64,000 nucleotides of DNA. Source: Candidatus Nanohalobium sp. Its GTDB lineage: Archaea > Nanohalarchaeota > Nanosalinia > Nanosalinales > Nanosalinaceae. The DNA lies in NCBI GenBank assembly GCA_042217555.1, contig JBDGSL010000033.1, forward strand, positions 1-64,000, read 5' to 3'. A program made the position numbers. Shown here one piece after another: positions 24,001 to 27,000 of the stretch (its first letter is position 1; each line of letters begins with the position of its first letter).

Positions 24001-27000
24001 GGAAGATCGTTCGGATCTGTACGCTTCTTATCCTTTTCAGGCACGTAGGCTTTGAAGCCTTGAGGTAGAAGAGGTGATTCCTCGGGGTTGGATGATAGTT
24101 CGTGGAACTCTAGAAGCCGTTTGATTGCGGACTTGTACTCCATCTTGGTCTTCGCCGAGTAGTCCTTGCTGTAGTACTCGCTGTTCTCTATCTGTCCGAG
24201 AATCTTGTGGATCTTCCTTTTACTTTCCTCGTCTTCCCTCAGGTTGTCGAGCCGGAAGTCGTTGTGTTCGAGAATCTGTTTGAGTGAGGAAAGGTACCGG
24301 TACTGTCTGGAGGTACTGGTGCTGCGTAATGCGTTCCAGTCCTTGAACTGTTCAGCTAATTTTTTGTTCTCCTCACATATCTGGGAGGAGTTCTGGATTT
24401 TTCTAGAAGCGGTTTCAAGTCGTTGTTTGTATTGATGTAGGTCTTCCATTGGTGCGGGTCACGTGATTTACGTGCTATAGTCGTGTGCGCGACCCCCTTA
24501 AAAACCGCGAATCGGAATCTCTCCGGGCAGAAAGTTGCCCGATTATGAGTATAAGCAGTTGTGCGGGAGGCAGGATTTGAACCTGCGAACCCTCTAGGGG
24601 ACAGCGCATTTCCCGTTGACTTGAAAACACTTCTGTGTTTTCTGCGAACCGGTTTCCTGGATGGAATCGGTGTCTCAAACCTCTGTCTCTTGGTGGAGAA
24701 AGAGGTGTCCTGAACGCTGCGCCTTTGACCACTTGGCGACTCCCGCCTGGTTGTCTTTTACCGGGCTGATTCTTATAAGTAGCTGGTTAAGCGAGCCTGG
24801 AGGGATTTGAACCCTCGACCCCGAGGTATTTCCAACAGTTGAGAATGGAAGATTGAGGCCTTGTTGGATGTGAAGTGGTAGCGGTTTTTCCAGGTTTAGG
24901 AACCTCGTGCTCTGTCCAGCTGAGCTACAGGCTCTTGTATTGGTTCTCTGTGGAGGTTATAGTTAAGAAACATGAGAGAAAGAGGTTTTTACTCTTCGTC
25001 CTCTACGAGTGCTTCTATCTGGAATGTTTTCTGGCACTGTGGGTATCCCTGGCATCCCCAGAAGAAGCCGTATCGTCCTTCCTTTATCTTCATGGGCATT
25101 CCACACTCCGGACATGCGACTTCTCTCGGTGCCTTGTCCTTGTGTTTGCTGCAGACAGGTTGACCGGCAGAGTTCTTGGTGGTTGCGTTCTCCCCGCAGA
25201 AAACGCACTTTGTCATCTTGGTTTCCTTTGCCATGGAAAATGTAAAGAAGTGAGAAAGTTACTTAACCGTACGTGTTTTTACCCGGACTTCTGTTTTTTC
25301 ACGTAGTCAGCGGCGTTCAGTCCGGCCTGACAGCCTTCTCCGGCTGAGACCTGTACCTGCTGTACACCCCTGTTATTAACATCTCCTGCCGAGTAAAGTC
25401 CTTCTACACCTGTCTCCATCTCTTTGTTGACTTTGATCCGGCCTGATTCATCTTTCTCCACGAGATCTGTGATATCGGAGTTAGGGACCGTACCTATCTC
25501 TACAAAGGCAGCCTTGACATCCAGCTCTTTCATCTCTCCTCTGTGGTCATACTTGACACCTTCCAGGAACTCATCGCCGTAGAACTCTTCAGCGGTTGCT
25601 TCACGGATAACCTCGACATTTTCATCTTCTTCTACTTTCTCAATCGTCACGTGCTCTCCCTTCAGTTCCCCGGAACGGGAGAGAAGAAACACTTTCTCTG
25701 CGATATCAGAAAGATAGTCCGCGGCCTCAGTACCGGCGTAACCACCGCCGATCACCGCAACCCGATCTCCCTGATAGAGAGGGCCATCACAGACAGCACA
25801 GTAGCCAACCCCCTTATTAGCAAACTCTTCTTCACCAGGAACCCCAAGTTTTCTCCTGTGACCTCCAGTAGCAATAATCACTGCATGAGACCTGAAAACC
25901 TTGCCGTCACTTCTTTCAACCTCGAAAACACCGTCCTCACGGCAGATATCAACAACCCTGTAACCGGTCTTCTCCTCAACATCATAGTCACGCATATGTT
26001 CAAGGAACCTATCCGCCAGGTCAGGCCCGGAAACACTCTTGAAACCAAGATAGTTCTCAACTTTTTCAGTATTATTCAACTGCCCGCCGTACTCATCCGC
26101 TACAACCGTCACGTCCACACCTGAACGTGAAGCATAAATCGCAGCAGACTGAGCCGCCGAAGCACCACCAACAACAATCAAATCACGAACATCTTCACTC
26201 ATAAAAAACAGAACCACTCAACAAACTTCAAAACACCCGGCCTTACCCAACCGAAACCCCGCCCTCTCCCACCCCCTCATCAAAATAACACTAATAAAAC
26301 TTCCCCGAAACCACATTCAATACACCCGCACCAACCTCCAGATCCCTCCAACCACAAAAAAGACCGGGAGCGGCTTCCCCCAAAAAAACACAGATTTAAG
26401 CCCTCCCGGTGAAAAACTATACCTGGAGGAAAGAAGGAAAAAACCCTCCAGCGTGCGTTGATGAAACTCCATGAGAGTTTCTAAGACTTAACAAACCTTC
26501 ATAGGAAACTTCGTTCGCGGCGTTGGTCCAGTGGCTAAGACACGTGCTTGCCAACACTGTCTAACTCCATCACGAGTTAACAGTTCGAGAAGCAGAACGC
26601 TTCAACGGCAAATTGCGCGTAACCCGGGTTCAAATCCCGGACGCCGCATAAGGTTACGCTCTTATATCGCAATAAACCATGTTTCACATGGCTTCTAGGA
26701 TTTTTGGCAGAAATACCTTAGGTTTTCAACATCTTGGATGCCGCAAAACTTCTGAAAGTTTTATCATCATAAGCCATGTTTCACATGGCTTTCAGGATTT
26801 TTGGCAGAAATATCTTTGATTTTCAAACCGAGGAACTTCGGTGCCGAGGAGAAGAAAAATCTCTGATTTTCGAATCCTGGACACCACAAATTTCTCTGAA
26901 ATTTGCTTGGTTAAGAAAATCTCTGATTTTCGGATGCAGCATAAGGTTACGCTCTTATATCGCAATAAGCTTACGGAGAAAGACGTTATAGAAGATATGC

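Follow-up and report, generated by a model that had tools for sequence, protein, structure and literature searches.

How introns arrive in archaeal tRNA genes is an open question, and it is raised anew by a short hairpin repeat that lies inside and beside tRNA genes of Candidatus Nanohalobium sp. We examined a 64,000-nt stretch of this genome (the window) and asked what the repeat is. The preliminary description read it as an RNA module of the D'/C' kink-turn (k-turn) type, functional in pre-tRNAs and introns and bound by L7Ae, and gave a MITE-like DNA repeat as the alternative. We conclude that the module is probably the end of a non-autonomous, gene-less mini-insertion element that also builds bulge-helix-bulge (BHB) introns. 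Its insertion as DNA is suggested by flanking target duplications and by empty alleles, both of which had been missed. In what follows, G000 is the genome under study, G001 to G058 are other genomes, and L-numbers are loci.

The array behind tRNA-Gly(GCC)

At the window locus, units alternate in an array with decayed copies of the 3′ end of tRNA-Gly(GCC), all on the forward strand. The gene's 5′ exon (26517..26553; Rfam RF00005 and ARAGORN with introns) is followed by a 60-nt BHB intron at position 37/38 with the central helix TTGC/GCAA (26554..26613), and then by the 3′ exon (26614..26648; ARAGORN with introns), whose final 15-16 nt are the duplicated target. Unit 1 (26649..26730) consists of a 'B' head (a stem with a GTTACGCT loop), a linker, hairpin 2 (26674-26694) and a body, and, across 81 nt, shares 93% identity with the unit that follows tRNA-Glu(TTC) on contig C37. 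A first decayed copy of the tRNA 3′ end (26731..26745; 12/15 identical) leads to the module of the preliminary description, here called the 'A' head (26745..26795), which is made up of hairpin 1 (26745-26762), the linker ATCATCA-T (26763-26770), hairpin 2 (26771-26791) and the tail TCAG (26792-26795). The remainder of unit 2 (26796..26872) holds more small hairpins and is 94-95% identical to copies on C37 and C11. Behind a second decayed copy (26873..26888; 12 of the last 15 identical) stands unit 3, a 42-nt double hairpin (26889..26930) with 93% identity to the unit directly behind tRNA-Gly(TCC) of G058 and 89% to the one behind tRNA-Leu(GAG) of G000. A short third copy (26931..26941) and a truncated second B head (26942..26968), identical to 26649-26675, come next. 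The interval 26646-26809 of the preliminary description contains one true copy, at 26745-26795; the first half of that interval is a unit with a different head, the GTTACGCT loop, on the same body, and then decayed tRNA 3′ end.

The second window gene of this kind is tRNA-Ser(CGA) (61643..61866, reverse strand; labelled Arg-TCT by ARAGORN), whose intron has an A head at its start and an inverted A head at its end (profile matches 61772-61816 and 61699-61743), and whose 3′ end is duplicated 56 nt downstream with 20/20 identity. Module inserts conceal tRNA genes from default annotation: ARAGORN calls no tRNA gene in the window without its intron option and four with it.

DNA contigs of one study, possibly of the source sample, matched 26665-26769, 26774-26842 and 26829-26968 with zero differences. 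In one contig of the same study an intact T-arm is followed directly by the A unit, and in others different units stand behind the tRNA end; these contigs may derive from other organisms.

Module structure, tRNA linkage and strand

The module is a multicopy, non-coding sequence with the order hairpin 1, ATCATCA, hairpin 2; it occurs on either strand and almost solely in Nanohaloarchaea, where plain blastn finds it in 29/70 genomes. Much of the earlier account was right, including the two-hairpin anatomy, the copy number and the rule that a hairpin faces the nearest exon. The same 11 sites were obtained in G000 with the 22-mer at up to 4 mismatches. With an nhmmer profile built from 66 copies of other genomes, G000 gave 8, 14 and 17 matches at E<=1e-3, E<=0.04 and E<=1, respectively (best reversed-genome control, E 0.97); some of these are head-only or body-only, so the match count is not a count of whole modules. 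The tRNA link is strong, with 13/14 profile matches inside or within 200 nt of a tRNA gene, compared to 8.6% of non-coding DNA (p=2e-13), and with 5/6 in the complete genome G058, compared to 15.8% (p=5e-4). Of the 14 matches, 13 lie outside ORFs of at least 100 aa, and the exception is an ORF that crosses the tRNA-Val intron. Rfam again returned nothing but tRNA above the gathering score; at E<=1, six matches that fall far short of that score accompanied the tRNA at the window locus, and four other loci gave tRNA only. We dropped L104 (Clostridium) from all counts and L117 from the nhmmer training set; L146, which has no hairpin, was left out of the profile, relaxed-pattern and B-head analyses and kept among the 69 junction and k-turn loci.

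The covariation first reported is real. In an alignment of 39 rows, which we picked from the 57 copies with a clear hairpin 2, plus the window copy, 96% of 620 cells are paired and 0/500 shuffles reach that value. The helices are Watson-Crick-perfect, and changed cells are two-sided in 87 cases versus one-sided in 4. Perfect palindromes can also be produced by template-switch correction, without selection. The linker is almost invariant in a relaxed search that did not impose it: 49/62 relaxed matches have ATCATCA with at most 2 mismatches, and 46-49 of these 49 agree at each position. In 67/69 copies (shuffle mean 28), hairpin 1 has complementary bases at its two outer pairs, which often take in target bases. 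Read onward, the tail is TCAGAAA, which inversely complements TTCTGA of hairpin 1. The window module folds almost equally well on both strands (-15.2 and -14.1 kcal/mol). The B head shares its body with the A head and has no UGAUGA.

These features allow the k-turn reading to be assessed. A standard k-turn, as set out in the cited account, needs a 3-nt bulge and A at position 1n (PMC5061560). Hairpin 2 lies in a fixed register, with 2 nt left before the GA, in 57/69 copies; A1n is present in 28/57, G2n in 39/57 and both in 21/57. The 5′ GA box, described earlier as present in fewer than half of the copies, is a minority feature here too (GA 21/57, CUGA 11/57). By our classification, UGAUGA is antisense to the tRNA in 34/57 tRNA-linked copies, and it is antisense to the pre-tRNA in 9/11 intron copies from other genomes and in 5/7 intron heads of G000. 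A k-turn RNA functional in pre-tRNAs or introns is therefore very improbable, as it fails on strand and on its defining features. The near-invariant linker, the encoded L7Ae and fibrillarin and, as weak points, the frequent G2n and a slight G.U excess on the strand that carries UGAUGA (18 versus 7, p=0.04; stricter set 10 versus 4, p=0.18) do speak for it. Against them stand, besides the wrong strand, the incomplete A1n and the 2-nt bulge, a tail that inversely complements hairpin 1, a B head with the same body and no UGAUGA, a module within a candidate C/D guide that sits in the non-k-turn orientation, and introns of Trp and Met that carry a separate, well-formed D'/C' motif. A box C/D guide in the module itself was rejected on its hairpins and the Rfam result, without a systematic rRNA-target search: two perfect hairpins fill the module, terminal boxes are absent and no Rfam C/D family matches. 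The guide known from archaeal tRNA-Trp introns is described as having antisense elements together with boxes in pairs, C/D and D'/C' (PMC7994747). It resembles the module in being structured RNA with C/D-like words in a tRNA intron, and differs from it in that the module lacks a guide and lies mostly antisense. The Trp-intron guide appears to be present in the Trp introns studied here as well, as a motif apart from the module.

Junctions, target duplications and empty alleles

The sites that hairpin 1 abuts are the ends of tRNAs, splice sites or junctions of genes. We read 69 distinct exact-pattern loci and assigned their junctions by eye: 21 lie behind a tRNA 3′ end or a displaced copy of it, 9 at intron starts and 4 behind a displaced 5′ or D-arm fragment; on the other strand, 16 lie beyond a tRNA 5′ end, 2 at intron ends and 5 on the 3′ side; 12 are elsewhere. 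These loci are not independent, as the genomes are related and de-duplication spanned only ~90 nt. Whether the target is a tRNA 3′ end, a tRNA 5′ end on the other strand, a splice site at 37/38, the D-loop or the junction of two genes, the head is joined within a few bases of it. On the far side there is often a copy of the target, 14-26 bp long, which leaves the gene whole.

A duplication score of at least 12 was reached by 17/65 copies versus 2/65 and 1/65 in two controls; the other 48/65 have no duplication at the chosen score, and intron copies never show one. Perfect duplications were found at L099 (17 bp), L105 (16), L106 (15), L109 (26), L132 (15) and L152 (19), and also at L110, where 17 bp are repeated perfectly at the junction of a protein gene rather than a tRNA gene. 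Target duplication, a mark of MITEs, is present here with lengths that vary from 14 to 26 bp and are not fixed. Six different types of complementary dinucleotide occur at the junctions, so there is no fixed 4-6-nt target word of the kind that IS200-IS605 derivatives insert 3′ of. Copies of a tRNA's own 3′ end (at least 15/21) lie downstream of 10/42 tRNA calls in G000 versus 3/420 control windows, an 11th match being the next tRNA and not counted.

Empty alleles are seen at tRNA-Gly(GCC), where the syntenic gene of G001 and G003, two genomes of the same genus, lacks the intron and the units alike; G006 carries a single A unit with a 14-bp duplication, and three other units stand in G016. Where genes overlap at L170, the duplicated stretch is single-copy in G058. 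These alleles come from other species rather than sister strains, and loss may explain individual sites. The MITE-like alternative is nearer the mark than the k-turn headline.

The far end of the element varies between copies and is not kept as a terminal inverted repeat (TIR). An A...B element of ~87 bp was found at unrelated targets with 87% and 80% identity. Terminal repeats amount to an imperfect 9-nt inverted match or to paired A/A or A/B heads; near-terminal palindromes are present and a TIR is absent, as in PATEs and the IS200-IS605 family. Because the background of the loose B-head pattern is too high for counting (17 versus 8 in the control; 12 versus 7), its occurrences serve as examples only.

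Mobility, rival explanations and tRNA introns

We propose that gene-less insertion elements of ~50-150 bp form a family and that the module is one of their termini. Each end comprises a hairpin at the terminus, then a linker of 7 nt and a second perfect hairpin; the A head occurs alone, with an inverted A or with an inverted B. An enzyme supplied in trans may recognise the hairpin end, probably as single-stranded DNA, and would join it at a staggered break beside a folded target, where gap filling would create the duplication. Arrays such as the one behind tRNA-Gly(GCC) are built by repeated events of this kind. Survival of a copy at position 37/38 would depend on a tail of 6-7 nt whose complementarity to the anticodon loop completes a BHB and enables removal by EndA, and the element would thereby create or enlarge tRNA introns. 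Filled alleles may also spread by recombination between conserved exons.

The 77 exact-pattern loci and the viral and phage collections yielded no autonomous parent, and blastn of the module against 50,697 phage records gave zero matches. A looser 20-mer matched 30 times in the viral scan, in no case with hairpin 2 next to it or a tRNA adjacent, and these matches were attributed to chance. No mobilising enzyme co-occurs with the module among the families searched in the genomes, which were families other than DDE, IS110 and serine recombinases. Among 70 genomes, many of them incomplete, Y1 TnpA occurs in 4 (G000 included), reverse transcriptase in 7, Cas1 in 3 and GIY-YIG in 13, and none tracks the module; nor does TnpB, present in 2/5 genomes. 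LAGLIDADG domains occur in 49/70, mostly in long reading frames. More tentatively, and as something possible rather than probable, Nanohaloarchaea may host undescribed, structure-targeted mini-elements whose enzyme reads folded tRNA-gene DNA and duplicates 14-26 bp, which would be a main source of new BHB introns, with tRNA ends recording the insertions as growing, CRISPR-like arrays.

Other routes to such junctions need to be weighed. In SINE-like retroposition, a minus-strand RNA ending in hairpin 1 would be recognised by a reverse transcriptase and copied from a target nick, with priming by 0-3 nt of microhomology that yields one precise end, one variable end and variable duplications. The single conserved end and the variable 14-26-bp duplications fit this route, as do the complementary outer pairs of hairpin 1 that often include target bases, the slight G.U excess of the minus strand and two reverse transcriptases in G000. 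We nonetheless think it unlikely, given that the enzyme occurs in so few genomes, that both G000 genes lie in a layout we inferred to be DGR-like, and that full A...B elements are hairpin-ended on both sides. The units could also be scars or cargo-less derivatives of tyrosine-integrase elements, in which the duplications are att repeats and the hairpins remnants of att arms. In favour of this, the ATCCC position at which mini-element duplications start is also where displaced tRNA-Gly fragments begin next to integrase genes (L053, L316); integrase matches above the cut-off number 10 in G000, and 4/5 module-rich genomes have a match, which exceeds the cut-off in 2. The same element, however, duplicates different targets, including tRNA 5′ ends and non-tRNA junctions such as L110, which a fixed attP core cannot do; moreover, the tRNA-Leu(CAG) next to the window's integrase has no A head behind it, and the A unit of L053 is on the host side of the att fragment. 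An integrase origin is accordingly improbable.

It is equally hard to credit that no dedicated enzyme is involved, with breaks at tRNA genes, caused by homing endonucleases, integrase misfires or R-loop processing, being repaired by template switching onto hairpin copies, and with only gene-sparing inserts surviving. The variable duplication lengths, the mosaic units that join A and B heads to one body, and the many LAGLIDADG domains, with free-standing genes convergent on tRNA-Asp/Gly, agree with such repair. The junction, however, is always the same module end within a few bases, and 0/12 loci with a free-standing nuclease (short-frame LAGLIDADG) have a module beside the gene.

We found no paper that describes the element, and the mini-insertion reading can be set beside several known systems. 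The PATEs and SMRs of the halophilic archaeon Haloquadratum walsbyi are likewise short mobile repeats that bear palindromes and have no transposase; there is no TIR in PATEs, and SMR-A (~110 bp) targets palindromes by a mode of movement that the cited text gives as not known (PMC3119063). They are stated there to cause no target duplication, in contrast to the 14-26-bp duplications and tRNA targets seen here, and a derivative of PATEs or IS200-IS605 would have to accommodate a TnpA found in so few genomes. MITEs, as described in the same source, are non-autonomous, moved in trans and frequently flanked by target duplications (PMC3119063); unlike them, the mini-element has no TIR related to a known transposon, its duplication is long and variable, and it lies in either strand at tRNA junctions. 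The casposon at tRNA-Pro of Aciduliprofundum boonei shares with it the duplication (15 bp, T-loop-dependent) at a tRNA 3′ end and the possibility of tandem integration, whereas casposons are large, have TIRs, encode Cas1 and make a duplication that overlaps the tRNA by only 5 bp (PMC5137440). A casposon derivative was rejected, as Cas1 is rare among the genomes and absent from G000 and there is no long TIR.

Mobile DNA has been tied to intron gain before, in the integrase-driven disruption of a tRNA gene of Caldiarchaeum subterraneum by a 1.9-kb insert encoding a recombinase (PMC3293823), and in the transposition of whole, copied tRNA introns in Thermoproteales (Fujishima et al. 2010, cited in 10.64898/2026.10.13.758758). 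Both resemble the present case in their duplicated tRNA ends and introns shared across tRNA types, and both differ from the present modules, which are gene-less, occupy introns as well as sites beyond them in either orientation, and are found at protein-gene junctions too. A preprint of 2026 on Asgard tRNA genes tested copying, mobile elements and reverse transcription and arrived at no general route (10.64898/2026.10.13.758758). Here, one sequence family forms both duplication-flanked insertions outside tRNAs and nearly whole BHB introns, which makes a DNA route of intron gain testable by strain comparisons and in cultivated nanohaloarchaea, and implies an uncharacterised joining activity specific for tRNA structure.

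The module-bearing introns have the features of archaeal BHB introns, and their splicing is predicted from these sequences. In G000, which encodes an EndA domain, the BHB central helix with anticodon-loop positions 32-35 pairs 4/4 in 19/27 introns with canonical boundaries, a set outside which lie 8 further calls with non-canonical ARAGORN boundaries. Among the introns that carry the module, Thr-GGT and Leu-GAG pair 4/4 and Leu-TAA only 2/4. The intron load is 35/42 calls in G000, or ~34/41 genes once the 'Phe' call on contig C75 is treated as spurious, versus 10/42 in G058. The Arg-CCT intron consists of the module and a GGAAAT tail in G058, and of unrelated sequence with the same tail in G000.

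A repeated module at tRNA genes

We find that the repeated module, which consists of hairpin 1, the linker ATCATCA, hairpin 2 and the tail TCAG, is a real feature. A profile trained solely on copies from other genomes matches the Nanohalobium genome (G000) 8 times at E<=1e-3, 14 times at E<=0.04 and 17 times at E<=1 (best E in the reversed genome, 0.97), and the 11 sites counted earlier with a 22-mer were recovered. The proposed linkage to tRNA genes also holds: 13 of the 14 matches lie in a tRNA gene or at most 200 nt away, compared to 8.6% of the non-coding DNA, and in the complete genome G058 the proportions are 5 of 6 matches and 15.8%. 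Blastn found the module in 29 of the 70 genomes of the class. An exact 23-nt pattern occurs at 43 GTDB loci, 42 whose record titles name nanohaloarchaea or an uncultured archaeon and one from a Clostridium, and at an additional 34 metagenome loci. Both helices covary, as previously claimed, in an alignment whose rows were selected for a clear hairpin 2 (96% of cells paired, 87 two-sided changes, no shuffle as high). In 67 of 69 copies, both outer pairs of hairpin 1 consist of complementary bases, with six dinucleotide types in use (shuffle mean 28); the search pattern had fixed just one of these four bases, as a pyrimidine.

Judged from sequence, the module is best read as one end of a putative mobile DNA. 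Hairpin 1 starts 0–3 nt behind tRNA 3′ ends or displaced copies of them at 21 loci, at intron starts at nine and behind displaced 5′ or D-arm fragments at four. On the other strand, 16 loci have it a few bases outside a tRNA 5′ end or a displaced copy of one, and two have it near an intron end; at five it stands reversed on the 3′ side. The remaining 12 loci lie elsewhere, start/stop overlaps among them. Target duplications score at least 12 in 17 of 65 copies (2 and 1 in controls), with no scored duplication in 48 of the 65 and none at any intron copy. Perfect duplications of 15–26 bp occur at tRNA 3′ ends, at 5′ ends and at one protein-gene junction, and for 10 of the 42 tRNA calls in G000 the gene's own 3′ end recurs downstream, versus 3 of 420 control windows. 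The loci as a set are not independent of one another, and the empty alleles compared belong to other species. G001 and G003, syntenic and of the same genus, have an intronless tRNA-Gly gene and no units, the G006 locus has one A unit with a 14-bp duplication, and the G016 locus has three other units with 16-bp copies between them. A gene overlap (L170) is in the single-copy state in G058. The same ~87-bp element, in which one central hairpin stands between an A head and a B head in inverted orientation, appears at unrelated targets.

In three genomes (G000 C50:26404-26450 and loci L101 and L129), an A head adjoins the start codon of one particular gene, presumably dnaJ behind dnaK; therefore, some copies are old and retained. 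At two further loci (L016 in G007, L009 in G039), tRNA-Gly(GCC) carries a second insert in its D-loop, with a 9–10-bp direct repeat, besides its 37/38 intron.

In the window, which is contig C27 of G000, an array occupies the 320 bases directly 3′ of the tRNA-Gly(GCC) gene (26517-26648), whose 60-nt intron has a BHB (bulge-helix-bulge) fold. Unit 1 (26649-26730) holds the module body under a B head, whose stem bears a GTTACGCT loop, and is followed by a decayed copy of the last 15 bases of the gene (26731-26745, 12 of 15 identical). Unit 2, ending at 26872, has the same body under an A head, which is the module of the preliminary description (26745-26795). Beyond it come a second decayed copy of the tRNA 3′ end (26873-26888) and unit 3 (42 nt); a third, short copy follows, after which the head of unit 1 recurs. 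Because most of the array has difference-free matches in DNA contigs from a single study, it is not an obvious assembly artefact, but that study is possibly its source. Another perfect hairpin (26463-26481), 35 nt upstream of the gene and then followed by ATCAAC on the minus strand, has no other match in G000 or G058 and is possibly a decayed head.

The kink-turn reading and separate D′/C′ motifs

The preliminary description presented the module as a D′/C′-type k-turn RNA, a headline that is not supported. In a standard k-turn, the bulge is 3 nt long, the G·A pairs are tandem and A1n is essential (PMC5061560). Across the 57 copies with hairpin 2, the word on the D′ side has a GA end in 21 and is CUGA in 11, A1n is present in 28, and the bulge has 2 nt. 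More decisive is the strand. When 69 distinct loci were classified by reading, the complement of UGAUGA lay on the pre-tRNA strand in 34 of the 57 that are tRNA-linked; UGAUGA is antisense to the pre-tRNA in 9 of 11 intron copies from other genomes and in 5 of the 7 intron heads of G000. The tail consensus continues as TCAGAAA, the inverted complement of a TTCTGA within hairpin 1, which can be explained without any box. Folding of the module is as good on one strand as on the other, and one-sided (G·U) changes are rare (4 cells versus 87 two-sided), as expected of DNA palindromes. In favor of a k-turn, ATCATCA is near-invariant even when the search does not impose it, G2n is retained in 39 of 57 copies, there is a slight minus-strand G·U excess (p=0.04 and 0.18), and L7Ae and fibrillarin are encoded. 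It is possible that the module derives from a k-turn-like motif, or is incidentally used as one.

As a positive control, Trp and elongator-Met introns carry a well-formed D′/C′ motif, AUGA-stem-GAUGAUU with a 3-nt bulge, separate from the module (G000 C15:16514-16855 and C31:50-239; loci L134, L240 and L161; the G058 Trp intron). A stretch complementary to the tRNA's own anticodon loop precedes the motif and would put its fifth base on C34, and both introns are predicted to guide Cm34. The fifth-base rule and the Trp-intron precedent are in PMC7994747, which in the text consulted names solely the Trp guide as intron-encoded.

A candidate box C/D guide, ATGATGA ... CTGA with a terminal stem, lies at L124 (~1400-1570, no Rfam match), in G058 (574096-574245, minus strand) and at L138 (1561-1670, minus strand). 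It contains stretches complementary to the variable arm of tRNA-Leu and to the anticodon loop of Leu(CAA). An A module fills its D′/C′ slot in two genomes; in the third, it flanks the guide with a 22-bp duplication.

tRNA introns

Turnover of introns also speaks for mobility. Introns are called in 35 of the 42 tRNA calls in G000 (one spurious) versus 10 of 42 in G058. The Arg-CCT intron of G058 is a module plus a 6-nt tail complementary to the anticodon; that of G000 is unrelated sequence with the same 6-nt tail. BHB geometry is found in 19 of 27 canonical introns of G000, and the intron-removing enzyme EndA is encoded. A role of the mini-element in tRNA intron gain is credible; the route by which tRNA introns arrive is left open in the consulted part of a 2026 preprint (10.64898/2026.10.13.758758).

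Locus L117, in another genome, matches the window's tRNA-Ser(CGA) gene together with its intron and the next 76 bases downstream at 97.3% identity over 300 bp, and the flanks do not reach this identity. This stretch (61567-61866) covers the gene, the 136-nt intron and a downstream insert, and hints at allele exchange by recombination between exons, with mis-binning as the alternative. Default ARAGORN calls no tRNA in the window, and four with introns allowed. A tyrosine integrase gene stands beside intron-bearing tRNA-Leu(CAG) and tRNA-Arg(CCT) genes at 23103-24934.

Proposed insertion and candidate mobilizing enzymes

Starting from the observed junction geometry, duplications, presence and absence of units and BHB geometry, we propose that a hairpin end would be joined at a staggered break that adjoins target DNA in a folded state, and that gap filling would follow. 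Insertions would survive if the gene stayed whole or the resulting intron could be spliced out, and filled alleles could later spread by recombination between conserved exons. Several candidate enzymes do not follow the distribution of the module through the 70 genomes, many of them incomplete (reverse transcriptase in 7, TnpA in 4, GIY-YIG in 13, Cas1 in 3), and TnpB is present in 2 of 5. This co-occurrence test covers genomes alone; an enzyme on passing viruses or plasmids would escape it. Retroposition and enzyme-free break repair remain as rivals, as does an origin as att-site scars of tyrosine integrases. These integrases are common, and att fragments begin at the same tRNA position, but integrases cannot explain duplications of unrelated targets.

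We class the element as a probable non-autonomous mini-element whose target and duplication are unusual. It works in the manner of the Haloquadratum repeats that lack a transposase; by the descriptions in PMC3119063, it is set apart from PATE and SMR by its target duplication and from MITEs by the lack of their kind of terminal repeats. Casposon insertion at tRNA-Pro (PMC5137440) is similar, except that Cas1 and TIRs are lacking here, and so is the tRNA disruption linked to an integrase in Caldiarchaeum (PMC3293823), except that here there is no recombinase gene. The literature consulted, in which subscription journals are thinly covered, yielded no account of this family.

Free-standing LAGLIDADG-match genes of ~245 aa converge on tRNA-Asp(GTC) or tRNA-Gly(GCC) in several genomes (L276-L283, L233), where the tRNA often has a ~30–35-nt intron; no module lies beside these genes. 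An integrase region of 1.45 kb, 95% identical between two genera (L005/L053 in G021; G000 C9:2177-3626), starts at a displaced tRNA-Gly 3′ fragment and is probably a recently shared integrative element. Loci L090 and L091 hold two reverse transcriptase genes, accompanied by a small accessory ORF and by a repeat resembling a template, in a layout that we take to be DGR-like. An IS605-type element with TnpA and TnpB (L081, G000 C11:13834-17184) has end palindromes that appear to hold inserted small hairpin modules like those of tRNA introns, an arrangement that recalls SMR-A targeting in Haloquadratum.
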